A DNA stretch of 64,000 nt from a virus (IMGVR_UViG_3300046697_000072); one strand, 5' to 3'. Counted from the stretch's first letter, positions 675-64,000 are shown. A program made the numbers and translations. The notes: generated from the letters alone by a model not told the origin.

Positions 675-688
675 GTGCAACTTTGGAC
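675..688. repeat. GTSCAACGTTGSAC dyad motif, degenerate copy
   Basis: GTGCAACTTTGGAC (core G>T). Intergenic, 41 nt upstream of ATG 730. Confidence 0.55.
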
Positions 689-729
689 TCGGAGGCTGTC
701 TGAACAACAGCCCACAGGAGGAAGCGCCT

Positions 730-1269
730 ATGTTAAAACCAGACCTAAATCCGCACTGTCTGTTCCCGGAGATATGCGGGCCGAAGAACGGGTACCAATG
801 CGAGAACTGGCTTCGCAACTTGGAGGGGTGTGCGGCTGTTCACACCCGAAAAGCAGCGCGGTCCATGGCCACCGACAAACGCAAGAGCGCCCTAAGAGCC
901 GATGTGGACGCAAAGATGAAGGCGCACGGCTACGACGGCACCTTTAGGCTCGAATTGCTCTGGGAGATCATCGACTCCCTGGTGGATGAGTGCGCCACCT
1001 GGGAGTGGGCGGTCGGCAAGAAGGACAAGCAGATCTTGGACCTGGCGGATGAGTGCGCGGGTTCTACCACGATGGAATACCGCTGCCTCTGGGAAGAGAG
1101 ACTTGCAGGGGAGTGGTATCCATTCAGCGGAAAGGTGCAAACTTCGGAACTGTGCCTAGCCGAAGCCGAAAGACGAGGGCAATCCCCTGAATACCGTATG
1201 GTACACATCGAGGCCCGGCGGAAATCTAACCGGGAGTGGATACCCCCGTGTGACGTGCAGGGGTCCTGA
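730..1269 (+). CDS. Hypothetical protein
   Basis: Track ORF 664..1269. The internal ATG 730 is preceded by AGGAGG (about 716-722), so it is the likelier start. Confidence 0.6.
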   Translation: MLKPDLNPHCLFPEICGPKNGYQCENWLRNLEGCAAVHTRKAARSMATDKRKSALRADVDAKMKAHGYDGTFRLELLWEIIDSLVDECATWEWAVGKKDKQILDLADECAGSTTMEYRCLWEERLAGEWYPFSGKVQTSELCLAEAERRGQSPEYRMVHIEARRKSNREWIPPCDVQGS

Positions 1270-1628
1270 TGTCTTTCCGCTTCACGCCCGAGCAGGTAAA
1301 GGAGATCTTCCAGAACAGCCGCGCGAAGAAGCCTCGTGCGCTGGTGATCCCGCCCGGAACCGAGCTTATGGTCCCGGACCTGGACTACATGCCGTGCCTG
1401 CCCAAGCGCCAGCCGTGGCAGCTATTCCCGACCCGACCACGGGAGTACAAGAAAGCCGTCGCCGTTCTGTCCAAGATGCAGCGATGCTCCCGCACAGGGA
1501 AGGCTTTCTCGGCTCTGTACGCCGAGCTTCCGACGTGGGCTCAGTGGCGGGAACGGTACAACGTGATGGCTTGTGTTAGACCGGGGATGCGATTTCAGAA
1601 ACGCGCTCCCCGCAGAAAAAAGTCTTGA
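1269..1628 (+). CDS. Hypothetical protein (119 aa)
   Basis: Track ORF. TGATG stop/start overlap with the upstream gene. Confidence 0.6.
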   Translation: MSFRFTPEQVKEIFQNSRAKKPRALVIPPGTELMVPDLDYMPCLPKRQPWQLFPTRPREYKKAVAVLSKMQRCSRTGKAFSALYAELPTWAQWRERYNVMACVRPGMRFQKRAPRRKKS

Positions 1629-1654
1629 CAACGACGCATTAAAAGAAGTATGAT
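1625..1654 (+). promoter_or_regulatory. Sigma-70-type promoter (early)
   Basis: TTGACA (1625-1630), 18-nt spacer, TATGAT (1649-1654), with an upstream A-tract. Followed by GATATCACAGA...ACACAGGAG and ATG 1681. Near-duplicate of the promoter at 3651-3679. Confidence 0.7.
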
Positions 1655-1680
1655 ATCACAGAAAACACAGGAGATACCGA

Positions 1681-1863
1681 ATGCAGAACATCGACACCAA
1701 TACCGCCCGCCTGTACTTCGATGACGGTACGGTGCGGACTTTTTCCGACCAATCCATAGCGTATTCCGTATGGCTTGGTCTTCGGCGCGGAATTCGTTGC
1801 GCCTTCCGGGGGGCCGGGGATATCCGCCCTGTCTATTCCTGGGATTACGTGGATAACTTATGA
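1681..1863 (+). CDS. Hypothetical protein (60 aa)
   Basis: Track ORF. AGGAG lies 8 nt upstream of the ATG. First gene after the promoter. Confidence 0.6.
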   Translation: MQNIDTNTARLYFDDGTVRTFSDQSIAYSVWLGLRRGIRCAFRGAGDIRPVYSWDYVDNL

Positions 1864-2168
1864 CCCACGAATACACGCCCGAGGAAGTGCGTGAGCGCTT
1901 CATTGAATCCGTGCGTAGCATCGTGGACTACTGGGAGCACGTCCCGAATCCGTATGGGACGAGAGAAAGCGGGGTAGCCTTCTCTATCTTGTCCATGTTG
2001 GATGGCTGCAATGGCGGACTCCCCGGCTTTGTAGTGGCACCGGCTCCGCACCCGGACGACAAGCAGTACTACATTGACCATGGAGAAAACTACTACCCCG
2101 AAGCCCCTGAAGTGAAATGTGATATCGCCGGGGGGCTGCATGAACATTTTGCCAAGGAGAAACCATGA
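1860..2168 (+). CDS. Hypothetical protein (102 aa)
   Basis: Track ORF with ATGA overlap to the upstream gene. Confidence 0.6.
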   Translation: MTHEYTPEEVRERFIESVRSIVDYWEHVPNPYGTRESGVAFSILSMLDGCNGGLPGFVVAPAPHPDDKQYYIDHGENYYPEAPEVKCDIAGGLHEHFAKEKP

Positions 2169-2383
2169 CCCGCTTGCTGCTGGACTTCCTGAAATACCTG
2201 GGATGGTGCCAACACACGAAGTATTCTTTCCCCCGCACTGACCCGGCCACCGGCGTTATGAGCACGGTCTGTTTGGACTGCACGCATCGCTTCGAGTACG
2301 ACTGGGAGCACATGCGCCGGGGTAAACCGGTGCCGGACCCCGCAACCCCGCGTCCAACGTTGCACAAGGAGGTGACACAGTGA
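2165..2383 (+). CDS. Hypothetical Cys-containing small protein (72 aa)
   Basis: Track ORF with ATGA overlap. Confidence 0.55.
   Translation: MTRLLLDFLKYLGWCQHTKYSFPRTDPATGVMSTVCLDCTHRFEYDWEHMRRGKPVPDPATPRPTLHKEVTQ
2352..2365. repeat. GTSCAACGTTGSAC dyad motif copy
   Basis: GTCCAACGTTGCAC directly abuts the SD AAGGAGG (2366-2372). GTG start at 2380. Confidence 0.9.
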
Positions 2384-3051: not shown

Positions 3052-3289
3052 GAAAGACGATACACGAAGGAAAATCTTTTGTAAGGCTCGCCAATTGGGG
3101 TTCTCTGTCAAGATGTCTGCCGCCGCCTTTGACCTTGCCGCCCGCGCCTTATGCCGAATGGCACAGAACGGGGATAGCGACATCCGGAAAGCGCTGGAAC
3201 AGGAAGCCCCAGATATCGACGCGGCCACGGACTACGCGGCAGAAGTTTTGTGCCGTGCAACGTTGGATTGCTCTGAGGAGGTGAAATAG
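3052..3289 (+). CDS. Hypothetical protein (79 aa)
   Basis: Track ORF 2981..3289. ATG 3052 (MKDDTRRK) is preceded by AAAGGA. Confidence 0.5.
3255..3268. repeat. GTSCAACGTTGSAC dyad motif copy
   Basis: GTGCAACGTTGGAT (last base off consensus). Followed by SD GAGGAGG and ATG 3292. Confidence 0.85.
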
Positions 3290-4781: not shown

Positions 4782-4795
4782 GTGCAACGTTGGAC
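4782..4795. repeat. GTSCAACGTTGSAC dyad motif copy
   Basis: GTGCAACGTTGGAC starts 2 nt after the dnaN stop and abuts the SD AAAGGAG of the next gene. Confidence 0.9.
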
Positions 4796-4810: not shown

Positions 4811-6700
4811 GTGAACGAACAAACGACCGCGCTGGTCCCTCAACAGGACATGAGCGCATTCACGGAATATAACCGTGATCAAATCGAACTCGTCAAAGCC
4901 ACAGTTTGTCGTGGCGCAACCGACGATCAGTTGAAGCTGTTTCTAACGGTGTGCAAACGGACTCAGTTGGACCCGTTTGTGCATCAAATCTATGCCATCC
5001 AGCGAAAGAGCCGGGACGCATCCGGAAACTGGGTGCAGAATATGACAATCCAGACCGGCATCGACGGGCTTCGCCTAGTAGCCCAACGTTCCGGCGAGTA
5101 CCAAGGGCAGGAAGGCCCTTTCTGGTGCGGAGACGACGGCGTATGGAAGGATGTATGGCTATCTCCAGATCCTCCCGCTGCCGCAAAGGTGGCCGTCTAC
5201 CGCAAGGGATTCGTCAAACCAGTCTGGGGCGTGGCCCGATTCTGGGAATACGCTCAAACGACCTCCAAGGACGGTAAGAAGTTCCTGACCGGACTTTGGA
5301 AAACGATGTACAGCAACCAATTGGCCAAGTGCTCCGAGGCCCTAGCACTCCGCAAAGCATTCCCCAATGAAAGCTCTGGCCTCTATATCCGGGAAGAAAT
5401 GGATCAAGCTGGGCCTTCCACGATGGATGAACCTACCGCCGATGACCAGCGCCGGGTGGATAAGGTTGCCGACGATATGGGGGGCTACAAGGTCGGGCTG
5501 AAGGCCGTCCCGAAGACCGGACCGGCCCCGGAGCCGCAACCCGATCCGGTGAAGACGGTCGAGGTGAGGGCCGAAGCGCCAGATCCTGCCCCGGAGCCCG
5601 TCAAGGATGAACCGAAGCCCGATCCGGTGATCGAGTTCTGGGTGTGCTCTATCTCCAAGAAGTCCGGTAAAGACGTGCCTACGCCGGTTGAAGGGGAAGT
5701 ACCCCAGAATCGACAGGACACGGCCACACTACGCGCCCGGTCTTTGTGCAACGAGAAGGGCGTGACGTTCGTAGTAATCAAAACCCAGGACGGGAAGTTC
5801 GTCGATACGGTGTCGATCTGCAATCCCCTGTCTAAGCCCGCTCCGGCCCCTGCTGCTGCCCCGGCACCGGCTCCGGCCCCAACACCCAAGCCGGTGGCTA
5901 CCGGCGATCCCAAGGCCGCTGCGGAGACGATCAAGGCCCGGTTTAACGAGTTCGCGGCCCTGCTGGACCTGCCGGGTAAGACGGCCATTACGCGGTTCAA
6001 GGCGTTCGTGGCCGGTTACATGGGGATTAACCTGAAGGATCTCCCCAACAGCCCCCTGGAATGGCTGGAAGCTGTCGAGGAACTGGGGTATAGCCTGGGA
6101 TACGACCCGAACGAGTTCCGTTCCGGCCCGGAGTCTGCCGGCAAGCTGGCTCACCAGCGCCGGTTAGAGATTATGGGGTACATCCAGAAAGAATGGAAGG
6201 ACAGCCAGACTCAGACCTTGGCTCTGGAGGTGGCCCGTAAGTACGGATATAGGGTCAGTGACTTCCAGAAGTGGGCTGAGTTCATTGGGCTGGAGCCCAA
6301 ACTAGCAGAGGATGGTGCCTATCACTCTCTGTCTACCAAAGATGCCAACGCTTTCCTCCGGGCCTTCAAAGTCACCCGCGAGGCCGGTATCCTGCCAAAA
6401 CTGGCGAAGGATCACAACCTGGAGGTCTCCGCGATCATCGATCAGATCGAACAGCGCGGCCTGAAATGCAAGCTGGAGGAGTCCACGCCGGGCGACGTGG
6501 AGAACGCCATCAAGGGGTTCACGCTGGCCGTCAGGGAGGAAGCGAAAGCCGCCGCCGCCCCTACTCCGGTCTCGCCCTCAGCCCCAGTGAACGAGCCTTC
6601 TGGGACCGAGCCGCCAGCAGCCGAGGGTGGACCCGAAGCAGACGGATCTGGCGAGGAATCGGACGAAGGGCAAGATAACATCTTTGCGAGTCTGTTCTGA
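4811..6700 (+). CDS. recT: RecT/Bet-family single-strand annealing protein with a ~400-aa C-terminal extension
   Basis: N-terminal ~230 aa contain ...QLKLFLTVCKRTQLDPFVHQIYAIQRK...GIDGLRLVAQRSGEYQG.... GTG 4811 follows the SD (the track starts at TTG 4790). P/A-rich linkers are followed by extra domains and an acidic/hydrophobic tip, DEGQDNIFASLF. Confidence 0.8.
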   Translation: MNEQTTALVPQQDMSAFTEYNRDQIELVKATVCRGATDDQLKLFLTVCKRTQLDPFVHQIYAIQRKSRDASGNWVQNMTIQTGIDGLRLVAQRSGEYQGQEGPFWCGDDGVWKDVWLSPDPPAAAKVAVYRKGFVKPVWGVARFWEYAQTTSKDGKKFLTGLWKTMYSNQLAKCSEALALRKAFPNESSGLYIREEMDQAGPSTMDEPTADDQRRVDKVADDMGGYKVGLKAVPKTGPAPEPQPDPVKTVEVRAEAPDPAPEPVKDEPKPDPVIEFWVCSISKKSGKDVPTPVEGEVPQNRQDTATLRARSLCNEKGVTFVVIKTQDGKFVDTVSICNPLSKPAPAPAAAPAPAPAPTPKPVATGDPKAAAETIKARFNEFAALLDLPGKTAITRFKAFVAGYMGINLKDLPNSPLEWLEAVEELGYSLGYDPNEFRSGPESAGKLAHQRRLEIMGYIQKEWKDSQTQTLALEVARKYGYRVSDFQKWAEFIGLEPKLAEDGAYHSLSTKDANAFLRAFKVTREAGILPKLAKDHNLEVSAIIDQIEQRGLKCKLEESTPGDVENAIKGFTLAVREEAKAAAAPTPVSPSAPVNEPSGTEPPAAEGGPEADGSGEESDEGQDNIFASLF

Positions 6701-7047: not shown

Positions 7048-7722
7048 GTGTCCAACGTTGAACTAACGTACAACGCCGAGAAGCACGAATACCGAATCGG
7101 GGGCCGAAAGGCCCCCGGCATAACGACCGTGCTTTCGGCCATGTCGTACTATCCCTCTCAGGGGCACTACACGGATGAGAGCCGCAGGCGTGGAACGGCA
7201 GTACACCACGCCTGCTACCTCCTGGACGAGCACTGCCCCCAGGCAACCACGGTCGATGAGGCCCTGGAAGTCCTGGACCTGGACGACCGCCTGATCCCCT
7301 ACATGCAGGGGTACTTGGCTTGGAAACGGGAGAGCGGGTTCATCCCTCAGAGGCATGAGTTTCAGGTTTGCTCTGCCAAGCTGAACATCGCGGCCACACC
7401 GGACCTGTACGGGATATTCCCCGGACCATGCGGAGGTGTGGTTGAACTGAAGACTTGGAAAGCCGCCCCGCCGAAGTGCCAGCGATCCGCTGAACTCCAG
7501 ACCGCCGCGCAAGCCTTGATGATCGAAGAATACCTGGGGCTCCCGGTCGAGCGCCGGGTGGTGGTGGCGTTGACCGGGAACCCGGATCACCCACACCGGG
7601 CTTACGTCTGTGACCGGCCCGGAGACAAGAACATCGTAGCGTTCCTGGCACACGTGTTCTGGGACCGCGTTAACTCCCGGTTGCTGGAATGGACCGGGGA
7701 GGAAGAGGAGGATGAAGAATGA
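7048..7722 (+). CDS. PD-(D/E)XK (RecB/Cas4/YqaJ-like) exonuclease, partner of the annealase
   Basis: N-terminal ...EKHEYRIGGRKAPGITTVL.... D...ELK core (ATPDLYG...GGVVELKTWK). Acidic tail EEEEDEE. Confidence 0.7.
   Translation: MSNVELTYNAEKHEYRIGGRKAPGITTVLSAMSYYPSQGHYTDESRRRGTAVHHACYLLDEHCPQATTVDEALEVLDLDDRLIPYMQGYLAWKRESGFIPQRHEFQVCSAKLNIAATPDLYGIFPGPCGGVVELKTWKAAPPKCQRSAELQTAAQALMIEEYLGLPVERRVVVALTGNPDHPHRAYVCDRPGDKNIVAFLAHVFWDRVNSRLLEWTGEEEEDEE
7050..7063. repeat. GTSCAACGTTGSAC dyad motif copy
   Basis: GTCCAACGTTGAAC overlaps the GTG start codon (7048), giving the N-terminus (M)SNVEL. Confidence 0.85.
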
Positions 7723-22024: not shown

Positions 22025-22091
22025 AGGTATACCTCACCCCGATGCTACACCTTATTTAGCTTGATTTCAAGTGCTTGAGCGGGTAATTCTG

Positions 22092-22247: not shown

Positions 22248-22271
22248 ACAAACTACCATCTTGACTACTAG

Positions 22272-22299
22272 GATATACCCACGATCATGTGGTTGTCAA
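22272..22299 (-). promoter_or_regulatory. Sigma-70-type promoter for the fibre operon
   Basis: Minus strand: TTGACA (22299-22294), 16-nt spacer, TATATC (22277-22272). ATG 22247 lies 25 nt downstream. Confidence 0.5.
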
Positions 22300-22330
22300 G
22301 GGGTTTGTGGCGGGAGGGTATTCCGGGAGC

Positions 22331-54314: not shown

Positions 54315-54328
54315 GTGCAACGTTGGAC
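54315..54328. repeat. GTSCAACGTTGSAC dyad motif copy
   Basis: GTGCAACGTTGGAC, intergenic. It lies 3 nt below the glycosyltransferase stop and 27 nt upstream of the -35 box. Confidence 0.9.
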
Positions 54329-54331: not shown

Positions 54332-55027
54332 TTACGCTGGGGTGACTGCCACCGTTCCCCCGCTGGGCATGGGCACCGCCACCACCTCGGACGGGTCGAA
54401 CATGTCGTTCGTAACCCCGGTTACCCGGAGGTGCGTGCTGTAGATCTTCGGGGCCACGTAGCAGGCGATCCCCAGTTTCATGCAGCGCTGGAAGAAGCTG
54501 AAGTCCTCACTGAACTTCCCGATGATATCGAACGGCTCCTCGTGAAGTTCGTTCCAGATGCGCTCGAACACCCGCCTGCGGACCAGCAGGCACCCGGCCC
54601 CGGCGCAGTCGATCTTCACCAAGTCGGCGTTCCAGTCCATCTGCGACACGATCATGTAGGCATTGTTCACCCACATATAGGTGGTTGGCAGGAACGGACC
54701 TGCCTTGTACCGATACAACCCTGTGAGCACGTCGAGGTCTTTCTGCTTCATCAGGGAGACCATCCGACAAACAATATCAGGCCCGAATTGGTGGTCGCTG
54801 TCGGTGGTCCAAAGCCAATCACCGAGCATCGTTCGGGCCAGCCCGTTGCGGGCCGTGACGTGGTAGCTGCTGATCGATCTATCCCGGTGAACAAACTCCC
54901 CCGTCTGGCACATGTATTCCTGATTGTAGACTCGCATGTCTGCCCAGGAATCTGTGAACTCGGTTGGTACGGACATCAGCCCGCCTAAATAGGCCACCGT
55001 TCCTATTGGCCTTCGTAGAATCAGCAC
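54332..55027 (-). CDS. GT2-like glycosyltransferase
   Basis: ...WTTDSDHQF...DVLTGLY...IDCAGAGCLLVRRRVFERI...FSEDFSFFQRC... The start position is uncertain. Confidence 0.65.
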   Translation of the reverse strand: MLILRRPIGTVAYLGGLMSVPTEFTDSWADMRVYNQEYMCQTGEFVHRDRSISSYHVTARNGLARTMLGDWLWTTDSDHQFGPDIVCRMVSLMKQKDLDVLTGLYRYKAGPFLPTTYMWVNNAYMIVSQMDWNADLVKIDCAGAGCLLVRRRVFERIWNELHEEPFDIIGKFSEDFSFFQRCMKLGIACYVAPKIYSTHLRVTGVTNDMFDPSEVVAVPMPSGGTVAVTPA

Positions 55028-55704
55028 GCGCGCTCCTTTGCCAAATACTTCTCCGCCGCTTTCAGACCTTCCGGGGTTCCGATGTCCAAGTAGGGTCCGG
55101 AGGACTCAATCGCAATGACTTGACCTCCGGCCTCCACCCAACGGTTAATCACCGTGCCGACGTAAGGCTCTTGCTGCCACATCCTAGAAAGGGTTCTCAA
55201 CTCCAGGCAGGTCATTCGCATCGCGCCCCATACCCATCCCGATGCTGGCTTTGAAGCCTTGACCGCTACCCTTCTGACCATCCCGGCCTCGTCGTATTCC
55301 ACGGAGTCGAAGTTCTCTGGATCGGGAACCTGGAATACAAGTAGGGACATTCTCTGTGGGAGTTTCTGAAAACCGTACTCTGGGAACCAGACCGTATCCG
55401 GCAACCCGATCAACACATCCCCACTTACAAAAGGCTCGCAGATGAAAATGGCGTCTGCCAGACCAATCGGCTCCGGCTGAATCAGGTAGCAGAGTTTAGC
55501 TGACTTGTAGGTAGTGCCGTACTTACGAAGGATGTCGGCCTTCCCCGGTGCGATCACGATGCAGATCTTATCGGCCCCGCCAATCACCATACGGTCCAGC
55601 AAGTACTCGATCACCGGCTTACCGGCAACCGGGATCAGTTCTTTCGAGCACTGCCGGTTCGGAAGCCGGGTGCCTGATCCCGCTGCCGGGACTATTCCCC
55701 ACAT
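55021..55704 (-). CDS. Sugar-phosphate nucleotidyltransferase (RmlA/GalU-like)
   Basis: MWGIVPAAGSGTRL...KELIPVAGKPVIEYLLD.... ATG 55704 lies within track ORF 55021..55737. Confidence 0.75.
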   Translation of the reverse strand: MWGIVPAAGSGTRLPNRQCSKELIPVAGKPVIEYLLDRMVIGGADKICIVIAPGKADILRKYGTTYKSAKLCYLIQPEPIGLADAIFICEPFVSGDVLIGLPDTVWFPEYGFQKLPQRMSLLVFQVPDPENFDSVEYDEAGMVRRVAVKASKPASGWVWGAMRMTCLELRTLSRMWQQEPYVGTVINRWVEAGGQVIAIESSGPYLDIGTPEGLKAAEKYLAKERAC

Positions 55705-56438
55705 ATTGCCTCCCAGTTCACACACGGTGCCAACCACTCCGTCTCACAGTGGGTGGCCAAAGACGGGATCGGACCCCACAGGGTCCGCTGCGGCTTGCAG
55801 CGCGGATACCGTCCAAGGGACTGAAGGTGCATGAACAACTCCCGATCTTGGGGATGAACGGTCCCTAGGTATGCCGAGATCCTGGCGTAGTCCCATCGCA
55901 GTGTTTCCACCCTAGCCGCGAACGTCATGCACGTAGACTCCTGCGTGCGCCAGTGGTGGCTCCCGGAATGAATAATCTGCTCTCCTCCGGGCCGATCAAA
56001 GTCTTGGCCGTTGTACCGGGCTGGGTGATCGTACAACGTTGCATAATCCGGGTGCTTCTCTTCAAAGAACTCCACCAGTTTCACCAGCGCGTCCGGGGTG
56101 TGCAGATAGTCGTCTTCCACGAAGTACACGATGTCATCGTCCGGGAAACCGGAAGTCGTAGCCAGCCGGAGGGCGTGCCGGAATGATGCCGCGTTCCCGA
56201 TGGGACCACCGGATTCGTCCTTCAGAACCTCTACATCAGCGCCCGACCATAATCCACGGAGCCAATCAGGAGGGTGGTTCCCGTCGTATAGAACTCTTAT
56301 TGCAACCGGAGTAGTCATCCGAGATGCTCTCTGGAGCGCTTCCATCAGACTCTTCAGACAGGCTCTTTTGGAGTACCACGCTGGCCGGTGCTTCGCCGGG
56401 TTCTCGGTCATGCACAGACGGTAGTAGATTCTCAGCAT
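55692..56438 (-). CDS. Glycosyltransferase-like protein (DxD: YFVEDDY)
   Basis: ATG 56438 forms an ATGA overlap with the upstream stop (track ORF 55692..56492). Confidence 0.55.
   Translation of the reverse strand: MLRIYYRLCMTENPAKHRPAWYSKRACLKSLMEALQRASRMTTPVAIRVLYDGNHPPDWLRGLWSGADVEVLKDESGGPIGNAASFRHALRLATTSGFPDDDIVYFVEDDYLHTPDALVKLVEFFEEKHPDYATLYDHPARYNGQDFDRPGGEQIIHSGSHHWRTQESTCMTFAARVETLRWDYARISAYLGTVHPQDRELFMHLQSLGRYPRCKPQRTLWGPIPSLATHCETEWLAPCVNWEAICGE
56031..56044. repeat. GTSCAACGTTGSAC dyad motif, near copy
   Basis: GTACAACGTTGCAT. The core is exact and two flank positions are off consensus. Confidence 0.65.
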
Positions 56439-57106
56439 CAGAGCACCAGCTTCAACCCGGCATCGAACGCCCGTAGCCTGTCTTCGCTCCACTGGGGGTC
56501 ATGTTGGTGGCGGAACGGGTGGCTTACGAATAGGTCATGGTTCAGGCCCATAGCCGGGTTGTTTCTCAGGTTCCAGAACAGCCAGCCTGCTTTCATGGCT
56601 CGATACCCTAAGTTCGAATTGTCGTTGCCCCATTTTTGGTCCTGGTATTCATCGAAGCCGCCAAGATCTTTGAGAGCCTGAAGAGGCGCTGCGGCCCAGT
56701 CGCATTCCCAGTGCCGCCAGTCGATCATCCCGCCCCATGCCGACCGCCACTCTTCCACCACAGAGCCGCTCCACCTCACCTGTTTCCCGAGGTCATTGTA
56801 GGATTGAGCCTTCGGAACCGGGGCCGTGAAGAAATATCTGGGGCTGGACCTGTAGGCATCCCAAAACTTCTGGAGTCCTTCCGGGGGGAACCAACACCAA
56901 TCTTCCACTATGACTACCAGTTCTCCCCGCGCTCGGCGAAGCATGGAGTTGAACGCCTTATTTAATGCGTGAACTCTCCCGTCCCCATATTCTATTAACC
57001 ACTCAAATGATTGGAACGATTGGTCCTTCAAGGACTGTTCTATGGGGCGCAATGCGTTCAAACCCCTGATGGTTGGGCTTAGAACGCTAATCTTGGGGGT
57101 TTCCAT
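56438..57106 (-). CDS. GT2-like glycosyltransferase (222 aa)
   Basis: N-terminal ISVLSPTIRG...QSFQSFEWLI...ELVVIVEDWCWF. Confidence 0.6.
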   Translation of the reverse strand: METPKISVLSPTIRGLNALRPIEQSLKDQSFQSFEWLIEYGDGRVHALNKAFNSMLRRARGELVVIVEDWCWFPPEGLQKFWDAYRSSPRYFFTAPVPKAQSYNDLGKQVRWSGSVVEEWRSAWGGMIDWRHWECDWAAAPLQALKDLGGFDEYQDQKWGNDNSNLGYRAMKAGWLFWNLRNNPAMGLNHDLFVSHPFRHQHDPQWSEDRLRAFDAGLKLVL

Positions 57107-57956
57107 AATTGTTCACCAAATCTACAGCGAGGTCATGCTTTCTTTGTAAAAACTGCCCCCCATTACAATACAACTCTGAGAGTACCCTTTGCGCAATCCT
57201 GTCAGAAACACCGAACCAATATATGTTCCTGCTAGGGCACACTTTAGCCCGACATGAGGGGACCAGATTTTTGACGAAAGCAGAGAACTGATCGAGCAGA
57301 GGTTTCGACCCGACAAGGGTCATTCGCGGGTAGCGCTTGTTCCTTTTTTGGTGAGTTGAAACGCACCCATCCCCGTCAATCACTCCTCTCCAGAAATCTC
57401 GACTTCGATCTATCCCTAATAATGCTTTAGCTGAGAAAGTTTTCCGGGGGACCACGCCGAACTTCGCCAGCGCTCCGACTAATCTGTCTGACCTAACAGA
57501 GAATCTGACCGCTCTCAATGTGGGAACAAGAGTAATCGCATGGGAAGAACCGAGAAAGTCTCGGAACTTCTCTACATGAAGATGATCTTTTTGACCTAGA
57601 ACAAGGGCTACCGTCGGGGCGCTTCCGGGCCACCTGGAGTCCTCTACTATAGCCCCATCAGCCATCAGAAAACCAACCCAATACAGAGACTCTTCCGTAG
57701 GCTCGTCAAACTTAGATTCGTCTACCGGAAGCCGGAGTAATGCGCCCGCCTCCTTAGCGCCTCTTTGTCTTATCCCATTTCTCCTCAGCAGCATCCAGAC
57801 AGCCTGTGGCGATGCCTCATATTCGGATGCAAGCGCCACGGTTGTCCTGCCATTCAGGTATCCCGAGCATATTAAAGATGTTTTCCGTTCGTCAAACTTT
57901 CTCCGAAATCCTTTACGGAATCTATCAGCGATACAAAAACAACTCCCCTTTATCAC
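57087..57956 (-). mobile_element. LAGLIDADG homing endonuclease (two-motif)
   Basis: LYWVGFLMADGAI and FWRGVIDGDGCV motifs. N-terminal HTH-like region. GTGA overlap with the upstream HTH gene. Confidence 0.8.
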
Positions 57957-58195
57957 GGCTTCACCTTCTTCAGCCGCTCAACGAACTCCGGGCTGATGGT
58001 GCGGCGACCATGGCGGATGTCGCAGATGTAGGTTGGGGTGAACTTTAGTCGGCGGGCCAGATCATTGGCCGCACCAAGATTTTCATCGAGGTACTGGTTG
58101 ATAGCCATACGGAGGGCATCTTCTCTTCCAGACACCTGCTCCCGCCCGTCTTCAAGGAATTCGGCACATTCGATGAGCCACTGTAGGTCTGCCAT
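57953..58195 (-). CDS. Small HTH DNA-binding protein (80 aa)
   Basis: ...GAANDLARRLKFTPTYICDIRHGRRTIS... (XRE/Cro-like HTH). Has its own promoter and is translationally coupled to the LAGLIDADG gene. Confidence 0.6.
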   Translation of the reverse strand: MADLQWLIECAEFLEDGREQVSGREDALRMAINQYLDENLGAANDLARRLKFTPTYICDIRHGRRTISPEFVERLKKVKP

Positions 58196-58201
58196 ATTTC
58201 C

Positions 58202-58230
58202 ACTATACGCCTATGCGCTTACAGTGTCAA
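58202..58230 (-). promoter_or_regulatory. Sigma-70-type promoter giving a leaderless or near-leaderless mRNA
   Basis: Minus strand: TTGACA (58230-58225), 17-nt spacer, TATAGT (58207-58202). Only 6 nt separate it from ATG 58195. Confidence 0.65.
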
Positions 58231-58232
58231 GG

Positions 58233-60473
58233 CTAGAGCAGCCAGCCTCCAACCGGCTCCGCCTCGGGGTGCATGGACTTGAAAATCTCCCGGTTGTGAA
58301 TCAGCTTGGCTTCCGCCTCCTCCGTCGATTGGTAGGCTTTGAGGGTCTGGGACTCCCAGTGCCGGGCGGCTATCGGGATGATCTTGGTCTTGAACCCTGC
58401 GCTTCGGACCCGATGAAGAAAATCATCATCATCGTATCCCCACCCGTCCGCGAATACCTCATCGATCCCCCCCACCTTCTCATACACGCTCCGGGGGATA
58501 CAGACCATCGAGAACTCCAGATCCAGTTCCCCGGTCAAGGTGAATGGTCTTCCGGCCCAAGCCGTCACGGTGTCAGGAACAGCCAGCTTGTCCATCCAGA
58601 ACGGATCTTGGATCAGGATGTCGTTGGCAACCACGTAGATCCAGTCCCCGTGGGCCTGGGAAAGCCCCTGGTTCATCGCCTTGGACCAGCCCTTGACGTT
58701 GACCACCGGGATGAACTCGGCACCGCCTACGGTCTTAATGAGGGATTCCCTGACCTTCAGGCGCATCTCCTGCATCTTGTTCTCGGGGTCGTAGTCCAGG
58801 AAGACAACGGACCTTGCTGGCTTCACCGGCTTCGTGTCCTGGATTATCTCCGGGGCATCTTCTCTTGGGACGGACACCACCCCTTCCCCCATGATGTTGT
58901 CGAACCCATAGTCGATGGGATACCGGACGATGGCCTTAAGACCGGCCTGCTCCAGCCATGAGTCGATCACTTCCGGTGGGCAGGCGTGGTGGTGTCCGTA
59001 CCGGGTTGGACCGGTGGCTCCCACCGAGCGACGGTCATCCGGCACCGTGAAGATGATCCGACCACCGGGGGCCAAACACTCTTTGAACTTCCGGAGTTGA
59101 TCCGGGACATCTTCGGTGGCGTAGTGCTCCAGCATGTCACTCGCAACCACGGTATCCCAGATGTGCGGCTGAAAAGGCTGGGGCAACTGCCGGGCATCTG
59201 CCAAGACATTCACGGCGTTGGGCTTCTTCAGGTGAGCGTCTTCTTCGTACAGATCGATGTTGACGGCTCCCATTTCCCGGAGTTTCCCCCCGTCATCGCA
59301 GCAGCCTACGTTCAAAACTCTGCCGGGGAACATCTTGCAGTGCTTCAGGACGAACGCGAACTGGGCGGAGATATTGCGACCGGGCTGATCGGCATACCCG
59401 TGCATCCCGGCTTCAAGAACATCCACGAACCGCTCCCAGTTGAAAAGCGCCCGCGCATAAGGGACCATCTCTGCTCGGATCTTCTCTTGCAGTGCAACGT
59501 TGGACATCAGGCGGTAAATCTCCCCGATGAACCGGGCTTGGGTGAGCGGGTCATTCGGATCGCCGTAAATCCAGATTCCGTGCTGGCAGTAGTCCCCCGC
59601 CGCCCAGGTCGGGCAGATAATCGGGATGGCTCCCATCGCCATCTCTTGGAGTCCACTTATGAATCCAGTTTCCTGAAATTGTGTTGCGTGAACGCTCAAC
59701 CCGCACTGCATGATCTGGCGGTACTGCTCCGGCTGTCCGATGCGCCCGAGCCATGTGACTCCTGGCTGGTTCGACAACTTCTCTATCTCTTCAGCGAGCT
59801 TCCTCCAATGAGATGTAGGAGGGTTGCTCGCTATGATTTTTTTTATGTTATCGACACCGTAACACGCGAAAAGCTCGGCGTCGTGAACCCACTCTCGTAC
59901 ACGCGGCCAGATCTTGAGCAGCGGAATCAATCCCCGGTCGGGGCTGGAACCGAAGAATACCCGGCGTGGGTTGCGCTCCGGTATGCCTTCGGCCTCAATC
60001 CGGCGGATCAGATCAGACCGGATGCCGTTGAATCCCTGCCGGACTTTATGCGCGTACTTCGAGTACTTGGACTGGGTGTATCGCAGATGCGTGGGGCAGA
60101 GCGCGATGAAGTGATCCAGCTTCTCCCACCGCTCATCAGTCCAGTTCCCGTAGTCAACATCTTGGCTCGTTAGGCCGATAATTTGACCCGGATGGTCAAC
60201 CAAAAAATGATCTAGCTCGGCGGGCTGTCTCGAAATCAGCCACAGCCCTTTACGAGAATAATCCGCCTGTTCTAATGGAAGCCACCGGGTTCCTTTCCAT
60301 TCGGACTCGCACCCTTTCGGTACAGGAGCATACACAACTACGTCATGCCCTCTCTTAGCCATTCGCCACGCTGTTTCGACTACGGCGGTTTCTGACCCTC
60401 CAATTCCTGGATTGTCCGGGCTTAGATATGACCATTCCTCGAAATGCACGGGGCTAATAATAGTTACGTTCAT
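58233..60473 (-). CDS. Tri-domain GT4-like glycosyltransferase / SAM methyltransferase / GT2-like glycosyltransferase (746 aa)
   Basis: N-terminal MNVTIISPVHFE...GIGGSETAVVE (GT4). Middle VLNVGCCDDG...ASDMLEH...LAPGGRIIFTVPDD (class I methyltransferase). C-terminal ...GLSQAHGDWIYVVANDILI... (GT2). Confidence 0.75.
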   Translation of the reverse strand: MNVTIISPVHFEEWSYLSPDNPGIGGSETAVVETAWRMAKRGHDVVVYAPVPKGCESEWKGTRWLPLEQADYSRKGLWLISRQPAELDHFLVDHPGQIIGLTSQDVDYGNWTDERWEKLDHFIALCPTHLRYTQSKYSKYAHKVRQGFNGIRSDLIRRIEAEGIPERNPRRVFFGSSPDRGLIPLLKIWPRVREWVHDAELFACYGVDNIKKIIASNPPTSHWRKLAEEIEKLSNQPGVTWLGRIGQPEQYRQIMQCGLSVHATQFQETGFISGLQEMAMGAIPIICPTWAAGDYCQHGIWIYGDPNDPLTQARFIGEIYRLMSNVALQEKIRAEMVPYARALFNWERFVDVLEAGMHGYADQPGRNISAQFAFVLKHCKMFPGRVLNVGCCDDGGKLREMGAVNIDLYEEDAHLKKPNAVNVLADARQLPQPFQPHIWDTVVASDMLEHYATEDVPDQLRKFKECLAPGGRIIFTVPDDRRSVGATGPTRYGHHHACPPEVIDSWLEQAGLKAIVRYPIDYGFDNIMGEGVVSVPREDAPEIIQDTKPVKPARSVVFLDYDPENKMQEMRLKVRESLIKTVGGAEFIPVVNVKGWSKAMNQGLSQAHGDWIYVVANDILIQDPFWMDKLAVPDTVTAWAGRPFTLTGELDLEFSMVCIPRSVYEKVGGIDEVFADGWGYDDDDFLHRVRSAGFKTKIIPIAARHWESQTLKAYQSTEEAEAKLIHNREIFKSMHPEAEPVGGWLL
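59492..59505. repeat. GTSCAACGTTGSAC dyad motif copy
   Basis: GTGCAACGTTGGAC inside the fusion gene. On the coding strand it reads ATG TCC AAC GTT GCA CTG (LMSNVALQ). Confidence 0.9.
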
Positions 60474-61596: not shown

Positions 61597-62004
61597 CTAC
61601 GCCTGGTGCGTGCCTTCGACGCCGCGCTTGATCCGCTCGCGGGTGCGCCTTTGGAGGCGCATCAGGGCCATCTCGCAATGCTCCTGCGCAATTGCGTTGT
61701 CCTCACACGCGAACGGCCCCGCCTGAAAACTCCGCAGCCGGTCGATCACGATAGCGAGCAACGCCTCTTGCGTGATTCCGTTAACGCCGAACTCTTTGAT
61801 GGGGCCGTTCTGAAAGACGATTGTGGTCTTGAACTGAGCATCATATTGCTCATTTGGGAGCCTTGACTGATTAGATGCCAGATCAAATCCGGCGATCTCG
61901 TACCTGTGGTTTGCTCCCCCCTTCCCCGGCTCATCCGTGACTTCGATGGTGAGTTGGTGGTTCGCTGAGTCTCCCTCAACGATGTGGTCGGTGATTGTTC
62001 TCAT
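61597..62004 (-). CDS. Conserved phage protein of unknown function (135 aa)
   Basis: The C-terminal pattern FQNGPIKEFGVNGITQEALLAIVIDRLRSFQAGPFACEDN...RTRERIKRGVEGT recurs in many phages, as far as I remember. AGGAG SD. Confidence 0.65.
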   Translation of the reverse strand: MRTITDHIVEGDSANHQLTIEVTDEPGKGGANHRYEIAGFDLASNQSRLPNEQYDAQFKTTIVFQNGPIKEFGVNGITQEALLAIVIDRLRSFQAGPFACEDNAIAQEHCEMALMRLQRRTRERIKRGVEGTHQA

Positions 62005-62018: not shown

Positions 62019-62032
62019 GTGCAACGTTGAAC
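62019..62032. repeat. GTSCAACGTTGSAC dyad motif copy
   Basis: GTGCAACGTTGAAC sits between the -10 box (62049-62054) and the AGGAG SD / ATG 62004 of the minus-strand gene. Confidence 0.85.
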
Positions 62033-62119: not shown

Positions 62120-62144
62120 CGTGCCGTGCCGACCTGAGTGAGGC

Positions 62145-62606
62145 TCAGATCCTTTGAAGGGTCACAACAATTTCTCCCACGCCGGGGTTGGCCGATGGGA
62201 TCGTCCACATCCAGCCCAGGGCATCGCCCTGCGCCAGTTGGTTACGAGTGGTTGAGTTGAGGATCGTGCCGTACCGCGAAGTGTCTGCGGCGGCAGTATG
62301 GTCGATGGTCGAGGCCAGAACCGGGAACGCGGAAGACCCGAGGGTCGATCCGTTCCAGGCTTTTACCAGCATACCAGTGGTCGATCCCACAACTTCGTGT
62401 CGCTCGGTAACGGCGATCACTTGAGCCGGGGCATCGGCCACCCAGATGGGTTGTGTGTCCAAGGTCTGCCAGAGGGTAGACCCGAAGGTGGAGCCAACTA
62501 AGTCGAGGCTCACCGTAAACGTTTCGAGGGCGGGGGACTCGGAGGACCCCATGACGTTACCGGCAGAGTCTACCGGAAGCCCAGATTTGAAGATTTGAGT
62601 AATCAT
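62145..62606 (-). CDS. Virion protein (153 aa)
   Basis: Track ORF. Last gene of the capsid-proximal unit, followed by the terminator. Confidence 0.6.
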   Translation of the reverse strand: MITQIFKSGLPVDSAGNVMGSSESPALETFTVSLDLVGSTFGSTLWQTLDTQPIWVADAPAQVIAVTERHEVVGSTTGMLVKAWNGSTLGSSAFPVLASTIDHTAAADTSRYGTILNSTTRNQLAQGDALGWMWTIPSANPGVGEIVVTLQRI

Positions 62607-62624
62607 ATGTTCTTTGGTCCTCTC

Positions 62625-62855
62625 TTACACGCCCGGTGCTACCGGCCCCAGAGCGATGGTACACCAGCCGCCAGGGCTTCCCCCGGAAACGCAGACCCAG
62701 GCCCAAGTGCTTGTCGCCACCGTGGGGTACTGATTGATGATCATGTCCCCCAACTGGTACGTGCCTTCACTCGATGAGCCGATGGGTGCCCCGGAACCGT
62801 AGTACTTGGTGTTCGCCGGTCCCCAGTTGTCGCCGTAAGTGATTCCTGATGGCAT
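62625..62855 (-). CDS. Small virion protein (76 aa)
   Basis: Track ORF, Gly/Trp-rich. Confidence 0.5.
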   Translation of the reverse strand: MPSGITYGDNWGPANTKYYGSGAPIGSSSEGTYQLGDMIINQYPTVATSTWAWVCVSGGSPGGWCTIALGPVAPGV

Positions 62856-62869
62856 GTCTCATTCCTCCC

Positions 62870-63352
62870 TTACAGCACGTTGGCCTTGGTTGTGCTCGAT
62901 CCGTACTGCGGCATGGTCGCTGGCGTCTGGACTTCCGTGACCAGAACGTCAATGTTCACCACACCAGCCGTAGCAACCGAGCAAGCAGCGCCGGTTGGCG
63001 TCAGGGTAGCCGCCAGCGTCACCGCCGAAAGCTGGCCCGAAGCCTGAGCGAAGGTCTCCACCAGCGCACCGTCGTAGACGGCCTGCATGATGTCGTAATC
63101 CTTCACGAAGAAATCGGTCACGCCTCCGGATTTTCCAACCCGAAGAACAAGTGCCGAGAGAGCGCCCCCGGAGAAAGCCACGCTGGACTTCACCCGGATG
63201 TACTCGATAATCGCGCCAACACTGAGAGTCCCCAGGGTCCAGGTCTTTGCGCCTGTCCCTGAAGTCGCCGCCAGATCCGCGTAGCTGATCTGGTAAGAGT
63301 GGAGCACCCGCACCATCGTGAGCCGCTGGTCATTTGCAGTAGGATTTGCCAT
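62870..63352 (-). CDS. Head decoration/accessory-type protein (160 aa)
   Basis: Track ORF immediately downstream of the capsid gene. The functional label comes from position only. Confidence 0.55.
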   Translation of the reverse strand: MANPTANDQRLTMVRVLHSYQISYADLAATSGTGAKTWTLGTLSVGAIIEYIRVKSSVAFSGGALSALVLRVGKSGGVTDFFVKDYDIMQAVYDGALVETFAQASGQLSAVTLAATLTPTGAACSVATAGVVNIDVLVTEVQTPATMPQYGSSTTKANVL

Positions 63353-63364
63353 TGTCGTCTCTCC

Positions 63365-64000
63365 TTAGAACAGCGTACTCTGAAGCTGGAACCCGGTCCT
63401 GGGGCTCGGAACCAGAAGGTTGCTGGCCACCAAGAACTGGCCCGCCACATCCAAGTCATCCTTCGCGCCCTTGAACCCGGTCCACCCATACTGGAACAGC
63501 GGAACCTGCGAGAACCACCAGTGGATGTACTTCGAGTTGATCCCGAACATCCGCCCGATGGGGCTGCTGCCAGTTGGCAAATACCGGGAAATCACCACGT
63601 CCGCTGCGTTGAACTTCACGTTCTGGAATCCAACGTTGGCCAGATCGTTGTCTGTGTTGCCGTACCGCATGGAGGGCTGAAGTGACTGCCAGATCAGGCT
63701 CCATCCGTTCGGAGTCACCGGCATGATGTCCGGGTGATCCGATCCCCAGCAGGCGTTCTGATACGCCGTGTTGACTTGCGCCAGCGTGAAACTGGTCAGC
63801 GTGGCAAAGTAGGCGTTCAATCCGCCCACCGTCCCGTTCGCCATCCCGTTCACGTCCGTCCGGAGCTGGCCACCAACGCTCGGGAAGTTCGTCCCGTCGT
63901 CGTACCACTCCTCCAAACCGTTCAGGTACTTCTGCCGGTTCGTCGCTTGCCCGTTCAGGTACATGTTCGTCGCAAGAATCTTCGCCATCTTCAGCGAAGC
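63365..64000 (-). CDS. Major capsid protein-like, 5'-partial (N-terminus beyond the window)
   Basis: The frame stays open past Met 63988 to the window edge. The C-terminal pattern ...GFQNVKFNAADVVISRYLP...MFGINSKYIHWW...DLDVAGQFLVASNLLVPSPR... resembles HK97-fold capsid C-termini. Confidence 0.6.
   Translation of the reverse strand, partial: ASLKMAKILATNMYLNGQATNRQKYLNGLEEWYDDGTNFPSVGGQLRTDVNGMANGTVGGLNAYFATLTSFTLAQVNTAYQNACWGSDHPDIMPVTPNGWSLIWQSLQPSMRYGNTDNDLANVGFQNVKFNAADVVISRYLPTGSSPIGRMFGINSKYIHWWFSQVPLFQYGWTGFKGAKDDLDVAGQFLVASNLLVPSPRTGFQLQSTLF
63628..63641. repeat. GTSCAACGTTGSAC dyad motif, near copy
   Basis: ATCCAACGTTGGCC. The core is exact and flank positions 1 and 13 are off consensus. 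Inside the capsid gene. Confidence 0.6.

Follow-up and report, generated by a model that had tools for sequence, protein, structure and literature searches.

A genome-wide 14-bp dyad repeat, possibly a recognition site for a dimeric protein, in an uncultivated podovirus-like phage

We analysed a 64-kb stretch of viral DNA (IMGVR_UViG_3300046697_000072, called the window below) that is part of a ~104-kb podovirus-like metagenomic genome from an uncultivated phage, and found that it carries a short dyad-symmetric repeat, GTSCA-ACGT-TGSAC, at 23 sites. The repeat is over-represented, is selected as nucleic acid, is concentrated at cistron junctions, is conserved in position among relatives of the phage, and requires neither a particular orientation nor a hairpin. 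We consider the chances about even that these repeats are duplex-DNA recognition sites for a two-fold symmetric (dimeric), sequence-specific protein. That a protein binds them, which protein this would be, and what binding would bring about we infer from the sequence.

Abundance and anatomy of the repeat

The 8-mer palindrome CAACGTTG occurs 21 times in the window, at every position listed in an earlier note on this DNA. In 100 dinucleotide shuffles the mean was 1.14 copies with a maximum of 6, which agrees with the single copy or so that the note had expected. A search for the 14-mer GTSCAACGTTGSAC with up to two mismatches returned 23 sites versus 0.86 expected, and recovered the two one-mismatch copies at 675 and 27055 that had been picked out before. 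Allowing three mismatches added only five sites versus ~10 expected; therefore, sites are either near-perfect or absent. Synonymous-codon shuffling of all open reading frames (ORFs) left a mean of 5.9 copies (maximum 10) compared with the 21 observed, and the surviving copies were essentially the untouched intergenic ones. Within ORFs the motif is read in all three frames, as SNV or CNV ten times, as TLD-type peptides seven times and as QRC once. Because the motif outlasts both the dinucleotide and the synonymous-codon controls and because all frames are used, the nucleic acid, rather than a peptide, is under selection, as the note had argued, and an artefact of composition or of a conserved peptide is ruled out.

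The RecT protein of the window is identical to that of a 103,751-bp JGI metagenome contig (3300046698, Ga0495367_000140), which is circularly permuted relative to the window. Together the window and this contig gave 82 kb of readable sequence out of ~104 kb, and statements below about what the phage lacks cover these 82 kb. The readable genome contains 32 sites, or one per 2.6 kb. Since sites occur beyond the window edges, the repeat is genome-wide.

Twelve of the 14 positions are symmetric, and positions 1–2, 4–11 and 13–14 are near-invariant. The flanks hold no information except for a depletion of G immediately outside the site, and 17 of the 21 exact cores keep GT and AC at their ends, the same count as reported earlier. 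Positions 3 and 12 are G or C. They had been thought to vary independently, which is wrong: 19 of 24 sites with G or C at both positions pair one GTGCAAC half with one GTCCAAC half (exact P = 0.008, in a test that treats sites as independent where shared descent is possible), and the others are GTC/GTC (three sites) or GTG/GTG (two sites). The dominant 14-mer of the window is GTGCAACGTTGGAC. In RNA, the mixed combination sets G against G or C against C midway along the 5-bp stem, and the predicted folding free energy (dG) of this dominant form is –0.6 kcal/mol versus –4.9 kcal/mol for the perfect palindrome. For seven of the 23 window sites no fold is predicted.

Relative to transcription (sense strand), the mixed GTG/GTC form points each way equally often (8:8), in keeping with the earlier observation that both orientations occur whatever the direction of the genes. 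No evident relation was seen in the readable genome between site orientation and the putative origin or the genome strand. The spacing of sites was indistinguishable from random (coefficient of variation 0.80, P = 0.12), and we rejected regular spacing as a property of the repeat because significance appeared only after post hoc removal of the largest gap.

Placement of the sites relative to genes and promoters

We used a crude ORF map of our own, which agrees broadly with the JGI gene calls. A start codon is no more than 50 nt away from eleven of the 23 window sites, compared with an expectation of 11.6% (P = 2e-5), and 14 lie within 93 nt of one. The other nine are >100 nt from any start and sit deep in ORFs. 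At junctions the distance to the start ranges from –48 to +38 nt, and the Shine-Dalgarno sequence is separate from the motif, with several sites abutting it. A possible explanation for the concentration at junctions is that the coding cost is lower there.

The usual order is stop codon, site, Shine-Dalgarno sequence and start. This is seen at 2352–2365 (GTCCAACGTTGCAC), which lies at the 3' end of a 72-aa ORF and abuts the Shine-Dalgarno sequence of the gene at 2380; at 3255–3268 (GTGCAACGTTGGAT), 24 nt upstream of the start at 3292; at 4782–4795 (GTGCAACGTTGGAC), in the intergenic junction between the beta-clamp and RecT genes; at 30199–30212 (GTGCAACGTTGGAC), 30 nt upstream of the start at 30242; and at 36830–36843 (GTGCAACGTTGGAC), 36 nt upstream of the start (36794) of a 1096-aa gene. 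An intergenic one-mismatch copy at 675–688 (GTGCAACTTTGGAC) lies 42 nt upstream of the start at 730. Two sites overlap the start codon itself in the form ATG/GTG-TCC-AAC-GTT: at 7050–7063 (GTCCAACGTTGAAC) the reading is GTG TCC AAC GTT (M S N V) and at 9873–9886 (GTCCAACGTTGCAC) it is ATG TCC AAC GTT. Two more fall shortly inside a gene, 10 nt into a 60-aa ORF just past the DnaB stop codon (26237–26250, GTACAACGTTGGAC) and 32 nt into a 1740-aa ORF (51397–51410, GTCCAACGTTGCAC).

Sites inside ORFs are found at the boundary between the ResIII and Helicase_C domains of an SF2 helicase gene (11172–11185, GTCCAACGTTGGAC), in an O-like initiator gene ~150 nt downstream of iteron-like repeats (23903–23916, GTCCAACGTTGCAC), in a 928-aa ORF (31530–31543, GTGCAACGTTGGAC), in a GNAT-like ORF (39491–39504, the perfect palindrome GTCCAACGTTGGAC), twice in a 1549-aa ORF (41869–41882, GTGCAACGTTGGAG, and 45181–45194, GTACAACGTTGCAC), in a glycosyltransferase-like ORF (56031–56044, GTACAACGTTGCAT, two mismatches), between the domains of a 746-aa glycosyltransferase/methyltransferase fusion (59492–59505, GTGCAACGTTGGAC) and in a 207-aa ORF (63628–63641, ATCCAACGTTGGCC, two mismatches), the last being the weakest site. 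The earlier note had placed copies both between and within genes, and this held. In the fusion, the sense strand at 59490–59507 is the 18-mer ATGTCCAACGTTGCACTG (M-S-N-V-A-L), identical to 9871–9888; at 9871 this sequence starts an 81-aa gene and at 59490 it marks an internal domain boundary. This suggests that the 746-aa protein may have arisen from two cistrons once parted by a copy of the repeat.

Only four sites lie near good sigma-70-like promoters. Three are upstream of a –35 element: 22110–22123 (GTCCAACGTTGCAC), in a divergent control region, by 39 nt from a minus-strand promoter-like site; 27055–27068 (GTGTAACGTTGGAC, one mismatch), by 24 nt from the promoter-like site at 27093–27121; and 54315–54328 (GTGCAACGTTGGAC, intergenic), by 27 nt from the promoter-like site at 54287–54259, ahead of a putative capsid gene. 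The fourth, 62019–62032 (GTGCAACGTTGAAC), is downstream of a promoter, between the promoter-like site at 62077–62049 and the Shine-Dalgarno sequence and start (62004) of an Acb2/Tad1-like gene, at about +10 to +23 of the predicted transcript. Relative to the predicted transcription starts, the four sites are at about –67, –70, –82 and +17. We rejected a class I activator site because these positions are out of phase. A phage RNA polymerase promoter or strand-specific hairpin promoter was also rejected: the mixed form is oriented 6:4 relative to downstream genes and has no conserved flanking element.

The two longest site-free stretches (10.9 and 6.2 kb) consist of tail-fibre-like genes. These genes are shared mosaically with otherwise different phages, which suggests that they were recently imported.

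Conservation of sites in relatives

We found no megablast or tblastn match for the window in INPHARED, so the lineage has no relative among GenBank phages, and scans of IMG/VR with the 1096-aa protein or RecT found nothing. Relatives of the phage keep the motif, often at orthologous positions, contrary to the absence from relatives that the earlier note had named as a refuting result. The closest, L005, has ~87% nucleotide identity, is mosaic relative to the window and carries seven sites in 17.5 kb. Across six orthologous positions the motif is 81/84 identical (96%) versus 386/720 (~54%) for the ungapped 60-nt flanks. In L005 the site at 675 is GTGCAACGTGGGAC in the same place, the sites at 2352 and 7050 are kept, and the beta-clamp/RecT junction is occupied. 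At 9873, where the window has one copy, an extra 61-aa gene of L005 is bracketed by two copies of CATGTCCAACGTTGCAC in direct orientation. Homology between the two genomes starts or stops exactly at three sites (675, 3255 and 9873), stopping at 3255. In L004, whose version of the 1549-aa protein has 78% amino acid identity, the ortholog of the site at 45181 is ATGCAACGTCATTC versus GTGCAACGTTGTAC in the window; of the changes between them, two are synonymous and one is conservative (P C N V I versus P C N V V). Stretches L001–L004 together contain one copy in 54 kb.

In the more distant L209 (RecT 40% identical, synteny kept), the form ATGTCCA-N4-TGGACAT occurs six times in 21.8 kb versus 0.14 expected. 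Three of these sites are orthologous to sites in the window. One, GTCCAACCTTGGAC, corresponds to the site at 2352, both lying 187 nt into the homologous 72-aa gene; another directly follows the clamp gene, as at 4782; and the third, GTCCAAGGGTGGAC, lies at the helicase domain boundary in the same frame and place as the site at 11172, where the encoded residues differ (SKGG versus SNVG in the window) though the site is kept. L210 (41–67% protein identity) has GTCCAATATTGGAC or GTCCAATGTTGGAC four times in 11.7 kb. The centre thus varies by lineage, being ACGT in the window, AYRT or ATAT in L210 and ANNN in L209, and the arms GTCCA/TGGAC are constant. From these comparisons the arms are old and conserved and the centre is lineage-specific.

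A ~100-kb relative (L207/L208, RecT 34% identical) had no enriched dyad in the 21.9 kb examined. As separate observations, at least five genes of L207 (1208–5738) have a uniform translation-initiation context, ACAGGAGAGA(N4–6)ATG, and a GGGGAC tandem repeat with a 6-bp period lies at 5590–5710.

Occurrence outside the lineage

The dominant 14-mer GTGCAACGTTGGAC was found in 68 stretches of all IMG/VR as scattered single copies without clustering. In GTDB it was found in at least 120 stretches which, among the matches listed, are single copies scattered over unrelated phyla, as chance predicts. Among the matches listed for the perfect forms GTCCAACGTTGGAC and GTCCAATATTGGAC in IMG/VR, many contigs carry several copies. 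At least 51 IMG/VR stretches have three or more sites, and these yield 156–188 non-redundant sites. The core GTCCAAYRTTGGAC is also present in the cultured Roseobacter phage CRP-1 and in numerous marine contigs that are related to phage HMO-2011. The assignment comes from a distant DNA search in which two site-rich contigs matched HMO-2011, CRP-1 and CRP-345; the other contigs in the set are unclassified. We found no protein similarity at the level of BLAST between the window phage and these motif-bearing phages outside its lineage.

In the HMO-2011-related contigs the arms are perfect in 181 of 188 sites and, among the matches listed, the centres are CG, TG/CA or TA. Variants at positions 3 and 12 among the 188 sites are compensatory in only two of seven cases. 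Of 70 sites that could be oriented, 59 end 15–24 nt before an ATG, directly 5' of the Shine-Dalgarno sequence of early genes, and about half of all sites are >100 nt from any start. On the sense strand, TG centres outnumber CA centres 32:8 (ATGT 32, ACAT 8). This excess would fit deamination of methylated CpG on the non-template strand, and some of these contigs encode C-5 cytosine methylases. The loci (L332–L451) have lineage-specific asymmetric flanks such as AAACC...ACACTTT or AACTA...CTTA.

CRP-1 (L452, MK613343) carries four exact sites in its first 7 kb, at 429, 1059, 2228 and 6868, in the early region. HMO-2011 itself has no site in its first 12 kb. Just downstream of one of the CRP-1 copies, gp03 (L452 1093–1677) encodes a DUF7178 protein, whose residues 32–54 weakly match HTH_11/HTH_7. 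The protein may be a candidate DNA binder of that group, and it has no BLAST relation to the candidate from the window described below.

Multiple copies of the core also occur in a 108-kb low-GC contig, IMGVR_UViG_3300014204_000130 (L258, L315 and L296), with ~9 core sites in 22 kb, or about one per 2.5 kb. Several of these are followed by a conserved AAAATTAA, a Shine-Dalgarno sequence and an ATG, and three lie within 100 bp (L258 309–404). In IMGVR_UViG_3300000116_000075 (L329), five sites in 1.75 kb share the 25-nt consensus AAACCGTCCAAYRTTGGACACTTTT. None of the 14-mers was found in the searchable literature, and the GTCCAAYRTTGGAC repeats of HMO-2011-related phages have apparently been undescribed so far.

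A candidate binding protein

We looked for helix-turn-helix (HTH) proteins with Pfam and PHROG scans of ~70 ORFs and with precomputed Pfam calls for the flanking 18 kb. The scans gave a single candidate, an 80-aa ORF at 57953–58195 on the minus strand, which is predicted to be a Cro/XRE-like HTH protein. It has sub-threshold matches to HTH_31, HTH_19, HTH_3 and YdaS, and searches against PDB gave Cro/YdaS matches with E ~0.5. Its AlphaFold model has five helices (pLDDT 84), and its Foldseek neighbours are all dimeric DNA binders of the XRE family (HigA, C.Esp1396I, SinR, ClgR, YdaS and HipB) with probabilities of up to 0.99. The Foldseek E-values are only 0.4–1.5 because the domain is small. 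A strong sigma-70-like promoter, TTGACA-17-TATAGT, is located at 58202–58230 (minus strand) and ends 6 nt before the ATG, so the transcript is predicted to be leaderless.

Among 5.8e9 proteins, the sole homolog of this HTH protein is on L210, with 50% identity overall and a nearly identical HTH segment; L210 also bears the TA-centred variant of the motif. Scans of IMG/VR with the HTH alignment added one identical fragment, and an hmmsearch of the examined ORFs with the HTH profile gave one spurious out-of-frame match. The link between this protein and the motif is suggestive only. We regard the protein as the most likely binder. We note separately that a LAGLIDADG-like gene (57087–57956) directly follows the HTH gene and is absent from that locus in L210.

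What the repeat may do

Several lines of evidence lead us to favour duplex-DNA recognition. In this genome it is the dyad symmetry that is kept, and the arms need not pair. Between very divergent phages, what is conserved is the sequence of the arms and not their capacity to pair. The centre drifts in the way expected of spacers that a protein does not contact, sites far inside ORFs persist despite the coding constraint on them, and orientation does not matter. Also in its favour are the excess over both kinds of shuffle, the all-or-nothing quality of the matches, the 96% identity of the orthologous L005 sites, the predicted dimer-type XRE protein with its homolog on the motif-bearing L210, and the like reading given to the Cluster O repeats (PMC4351075). 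Constant arms with a centre that drifts between lineages are the usual pattern for operators of HTH dimers. A dimeric DNA-binding protein, which the earlier note had put forward among other options, is the most economical reading. Such a protein would read the arms GTSCA/TGSAC about one helical turn apart, and its sites would be kept genome-wide, preferentially where coding constraint is lowest, in the order stop codon, site, Shine-Dalgarno sequence and start. Once bound, it could serve many cistron junctions at the same time, either as a roadblock or operator by which transcription is modulated or stopped or as a mark that organises the genome, and the outcome might be early shut-off, silencing or genome organisation. 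The binding would most likely be done by the phage's own 80-aa HTH protein. As a side effect, the repeats may serve as microhomologies at which gene cassettes are gained or lost.

Some of the data weigh against this interpretation. Promoter-linked sites are only 4 of 23 and their positions are inconsistent. There is no site at the promoter of the HTH gene and none within ~1.2 kb of it (58230–58202), and no homolog of the HTH protein was found in CRP-1 or in the examined stretches of the other motif-bearing contigs. The presence of both the HTH protein and the motif on L210 may merely reflect shared ancestry. The excess of mixed GTG/GTC sites is not accounted for by a simple homodimer. The sites of the HMO-2011-related phages, at a near-fixed 15–24 nt before starts and with perfectly pairing arms, fit an RNA-level element as well. 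Lastly, the search for a binder covered 82 kb of the ~104-kb genome.

Such an RNA-level element is the strongest rival. It would be a start-associated hairpin or sequence 5' of the Shine-Dalgarno sequence, read by an RNA-binding protein or endoribonuclease and controlling the translation, processing or stability of individual cistrons; it is a good fit to the HMO-2011-related phages and a poor fit to the window genome, and we hold it to be unlikely. In its favour are the enrichment of window sites within 50 nt of starts, the several sites that abut a Shine-Dalgarno sequence and, in the HMO-2011-related contigs, the tight spacing to ATG, the near-universal pairing of the arms and the 4:1 bias of the sense-strand centre. 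Because a palindrome gives the same RNA from either strand, the lack of orientation is no argument against it. However, the stem is broken mid-way in 19 of 24 sites of this genome, the dominant form hardly folds, and no compensatory changes are seen, so that a hairpin element such as an N4-type hairpin promoter or a small regulatory stem-loop was rejected and the RNA hairpin suggested in the earlier note is not supported in this genome. Moreover, nine window sites and about half of the HMO-2011-related ones are far from starts yet are kept (for example, the helicase site shared with L209), distances to starts vary in the window, and the centre bias is explicable by CpG-to-TpG deamination on the non-template strand.

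We also considered that the repeats are primarily recombination joints at which modules are exchanged, via the RecT/exonuclease system or a site-specific nuclease or recombinase, making them an engine of mosaicism and not a regulatory signal. Observations that fit this are the extra 61-aa gene of L005 between direct repeats, the breaks of L005 homology exactly at three sites, the identical 18-mer at a domain boundary inside the 746-aa fusion ORF, and the set of enzymes encoded by the phage (RecT, two exonuclease-like proteins, HNH and LAGLIDADG nucleases and Endo VII). An event like that in L005 has been reported for the repeats of Cluster O mycobacteriophages (PMC4351075). The motif halves also fit the integron core consensus RYYYAAC/GTTRRRY. 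By our own count, though, the coincidence of breakpoints with sites is not significant (~3 observed versus 1 expected), and gene boundaries confound it. Known recombinase sites are longer than 14 bp, and no integrase, serine recombinase or tyrosine recombinase was detected in the readable genome. Recombination is expected as a by-product between any dispersed repeats, and strong purifying selection on sites within ORFs is hard to derive from a benefit at the population level. Support for a primary role of this kind is anecdotal, and we judge it improbable. An integron attC site was rejected as a candidate, since attC is a 57–141-bp imperfect hairpin with R''/L''/L'/R' boxes recognised by IntI and only the halves GTCCAAC/GTTGGAC of this 14-bp site resemble it. 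A LAGLIDADG or HNH homing target was rejected because the phage would cut itself >30 times and because L210 keeps the motif without the LAGLIDADG gene at that locus.

There is little support for two further explanations. One, of which the earlier note had named modification and nicking and which we consider very improbable, is that AACGTT at the centre of the repeat is recognised for DNA modification, nicking or a restriction-related purpose. The palindromic CpG core AACGTT, the site of the type II enzyme AclI, would suit it, as would the C-5 cytosine methylases of some HMO-2011-related contigs and the decay of the centre from CG to TG/CA in those phages, which is expected for a methylated C. 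However, an enzyme needs neither enrichment of its sites nor a 14-bp extension; L209 and L210 keep the arms and change the centre, the opposite of what an enzyme reading the centre would give; no DNA methyltransferase was found in the readable genome; and there is no strand bias, which argues against single-strand nicks of the T5 kind. AACGTT outside the motif is not unusual (~5 copies). The other explanation, more improbable still, is that the phage mirrors or exploits a host-derived iterated sequence, such as a HIP1-like palindrome, an uptake sequence, a Chi-like signal or a box for a host transcription factor. The same core in BLAST-unrelated phages of differing G+C content and hosts could point to a conserved cellular factor. 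Against this are the scattered single copies of GTGCAACGTTGGAC among the GTDB matches listed, the lack of the motif in recently exchanged tail-fibre modules (the gaps of 10.9 and 6.2 kb, and the single copy in 54 kb of L001–L004), the different centres of related phages and, unlike Chi or KOPS, a symmetric motif without replication- or transcription-linked skew.

Other candidates were set aside. The O-like initiator was rejected as the binder because its own gene carries different, iteron-like repeats (GGAAGTnGATAGTnAAAAAA). Resemblances considered as leads for the motif, namely a LacI-family CpG-centred operator, FNR/CRP (TTGAT-N4-ATCAA), NtcA (GTA-N8-TAC), the LexA Cheo box, sigma-54, IHF and integron core sites, differ in sequence or spacing, and we found no matching protein in the readable genome.

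Taken as a whole, the interpretation in the earlier note stood as regards nucleic-acid selection, the absence of strand specificity and a dimeric binder, and was not supported as regards the hairpin and, in the readable genome, modification or nicking. It overlooked the junction bias, the likeness to Cluster O repeats and the wider GTCCA-N4-TGGAC family. A more speculative and unlikely reading is that GTCCA-N4-TGGAC is an old, widely shared "cistron punctuation" signal of environmental podoviruses (~100-kb soil and freshwater phages and the HMO-2011-related contigs). It would be read by a small, fast-evolving phage protein or a conserved cellular factor to gate expression per cistron, and would double as a joint for swapping cassettes. 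If so, phages would have a counterpart of an integron-like cassette system that is tied to regulation.

Other features of the window

The genes of the window encode a beta clamp, a RecT fusion, two exonuclease-like proteins, an SF2 helicase, an O-like initiator, DnaB, and HNH and LAGLIDADG nucleases. The window also encodes a collagen-like tail fibre, a sugar-modification gene cluster and an Acb2/Tad1-like anti-defence protein. Searches of the window for known RNA families, tRNAs and Rfam elements found none. At 51439–52829 (minus strand), two neighbouring paralogous genes encode SU10-type adaptor proteins (PF24175); this pair, a podovirus hallmark, places the phage among podoviruses with C3-like or SU10-like tail architecture. 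Five giant ORFs (928, 1096, 567, 1549 and 1740 aa) lie at 30721–51442 (minus strand) and match no Pfam or PHROG family. In the 928-aa protein, residues 792–840 match Sigma70_r2 weakly, and the 1740-aa protein starts with a lipoprotein-like signal peptide and has beta-helix/fibre modules common to proteins of many unrelated contigs.

A cluster at 54332–60473 (minus strand) encodes a nucleotidyl-transferase, several family-2 glycosyltransferases and the 746-aa glycosyltransferase/methyltransferase fusion, and may serve glycosylation of a virion or cell-surface component. The 135-aa protein at 61597–62004 (minus strand) has an Acb2/Tad1 hairpin domain (PF24729), a sponge for anti-CBASS/anti-Thoeris signals. 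Upstream of its gene are a strong terminator (62120–62089), the promoter-like site at 62077–62049 and one copy of the repeat.

Upstream of DnaB, the 407-aa ORF at 23300–24523 encodes a replication initiator of the lambda-O-like or DnaD-like kind. The linker region of this protein (23620–23760) contains A-rich iteron-like repeats, two copies each of GGAAGTnGATAGTnAAAAAA and AACAGAAGAATAC, and, as in lambda, this region inside the initiator gene is probably the replication origin. The divergent control region at 22040–22660 has five sigma-70-like promoters, of which two, with 11/12 matches, stand back to back at 22544–22614. About 260 bp of it (22300–22560) contain no credible ORF, and an 11-bp perfect hairpin at 22620–22650 lies at the predicted start of the rightward transcript. 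The region, which has no Rfam match, may encode a non-coding RNA. Finally, a 15-bp tandem repeat, CGGTGCGAACCTCTC, is present in 17.5 copies at 3–264 and extends to the left of the window (L012 8508–9359). It is not a non-coding array; it is the coding sequence (plus strand) of a 283-aa pentapeptide-repeat protein with G-A-N-L-S units.

Comparison with known systems

Among published systems, the nearest is the 17-bp dyad repeat TGTTCGGNNNCCGAACA of Cluster O mycobacteriophages, present in 34 copies (Cresawn et al. 2015, PMC4351075), for which a dimeric DNA-binding protein was also proposed (PMC4351075). Every defining feature of that system that could be tested here is found. Both consist of short inverted repeats with a small spacer, in >30 copies genome-wide at ~1 per 2 kb, divided among short intergenic gaps, the 5' ends of genes and ORF interiors, with few copies near promoters and no meaningful orientation. 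In both, positions are conserved among relatives with occasional loss by point change, and insertions or deletions occur through recombination between two copies (here the extra gene of L005). The two differ in sequence, host range and phage lineage. The Cluster O repeat has invariant 7-bp arms and a free centre, whereas here arms of 5–7 bp flank a conserved centre and symmetry is systematically broken at positions 3 and 12. The Cluster O repeat has been reported only within that cluster, whereas the core described here is also found outside its lineage.

In L5-type (Cluster A) mycobacteriophages, a monomeric two-domain repressor binds the stoperators, which are asymmetric 13-mers whose orientation tracks transcription, and one phage protein brings about genome-wide transcriptional silencing through them (PMC9283540). 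They resemble the repeat in having >20 short sites genome-wide, largely in short intergenic gaps, and lineage-specific variants of the consensus. Because stoperators are asymmetric, orientation-dependent and bound by a monomeric repressor, the repeat, which is dyad-symmetric and oriented 8:8, is not a stoperator. No L5-type repressor, integrase or sign of lysogeny was found in the readable genome. The start-associated sequences of Cluster K mycobacteriophages (Pope et al. 2011) reportedly contain the ribosome-binding site, are asymmetric and are strictly linked to starts. Like them, the motif lies just upstream of many starts, and the HMO-2011-related copies have a near-fixed spacing to ATG. 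Unlike them, it is symmetric and apart from the Shine-Dalgarno sequence, and nine of 23 sites are remote from starts, in ORFs. Since it has no fixed position and does not contain the ribosome-binding site, it is not a sequence of this type.

For the CIRs of the Streptomyces phage phiC31, the C1 operators of P1 and the KorB OB sites of IncP plasmids, a single DNA-binding protein serves roughly 12 or more scattered sites, of which some are at promoters and others are remote from them. The phiC31 and KorB sites are palindromic and the P1 operators asymmetric. These are temperate or plasmid replicons with identified repressors, and KorB is a ParB-family CTPase, of which none was detected in the readable genome of this phage. 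A Cro/XRE operator–regulator pair is similar in that the 14-bp dyad falls within the ~14–17 bp typical of such operators and that the phage encodes a small, predicted dimeric HTH protein; it differs in that no copy lies at the promoter of the candidate regulator. The repeats of the HMO-2011-related phages share the arms, the 14-bp geometry, a CG (or TG/CA, TA) centre, multiple copies and placement 5' of the Shine-Dalgarno sequence. They differ in their almost always perfect arms, in their asymmetric flanks and in occurring in phages whose proteins have no detectable similarity to those of the window phage. A further difference is that the sites of CRP-1, the only complete genome examined, lie in the early region.

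Genome-wide dyad repeats have been known from Cluster O since 2015, and the present case is an independent and evolutionarily deeper example with a single plausible binder. It goes beyond that precedent in that sites keep their positions in relatives with as little as ~40% protein identity even as the centre diverges, and in that the same core is present in BLAST-unrelated marine phages, including a cultured one. New here are the enrichment at cistron junctions, the dependence between positions 3 and 12, and the recurrence of the core in HMO-2011-related contigs and CRP-1. Because the core is present in the cultured CRP-1, a relative of the ocean-abundant phage HMO-2011, the question is experimentally tractable. 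If the repeat is a genome-wide signal for regulation or cassette exchange, it would account for the organisation of expression and mosaic evolution in large, lytic-looking phages that have almost no recognisable regulators.

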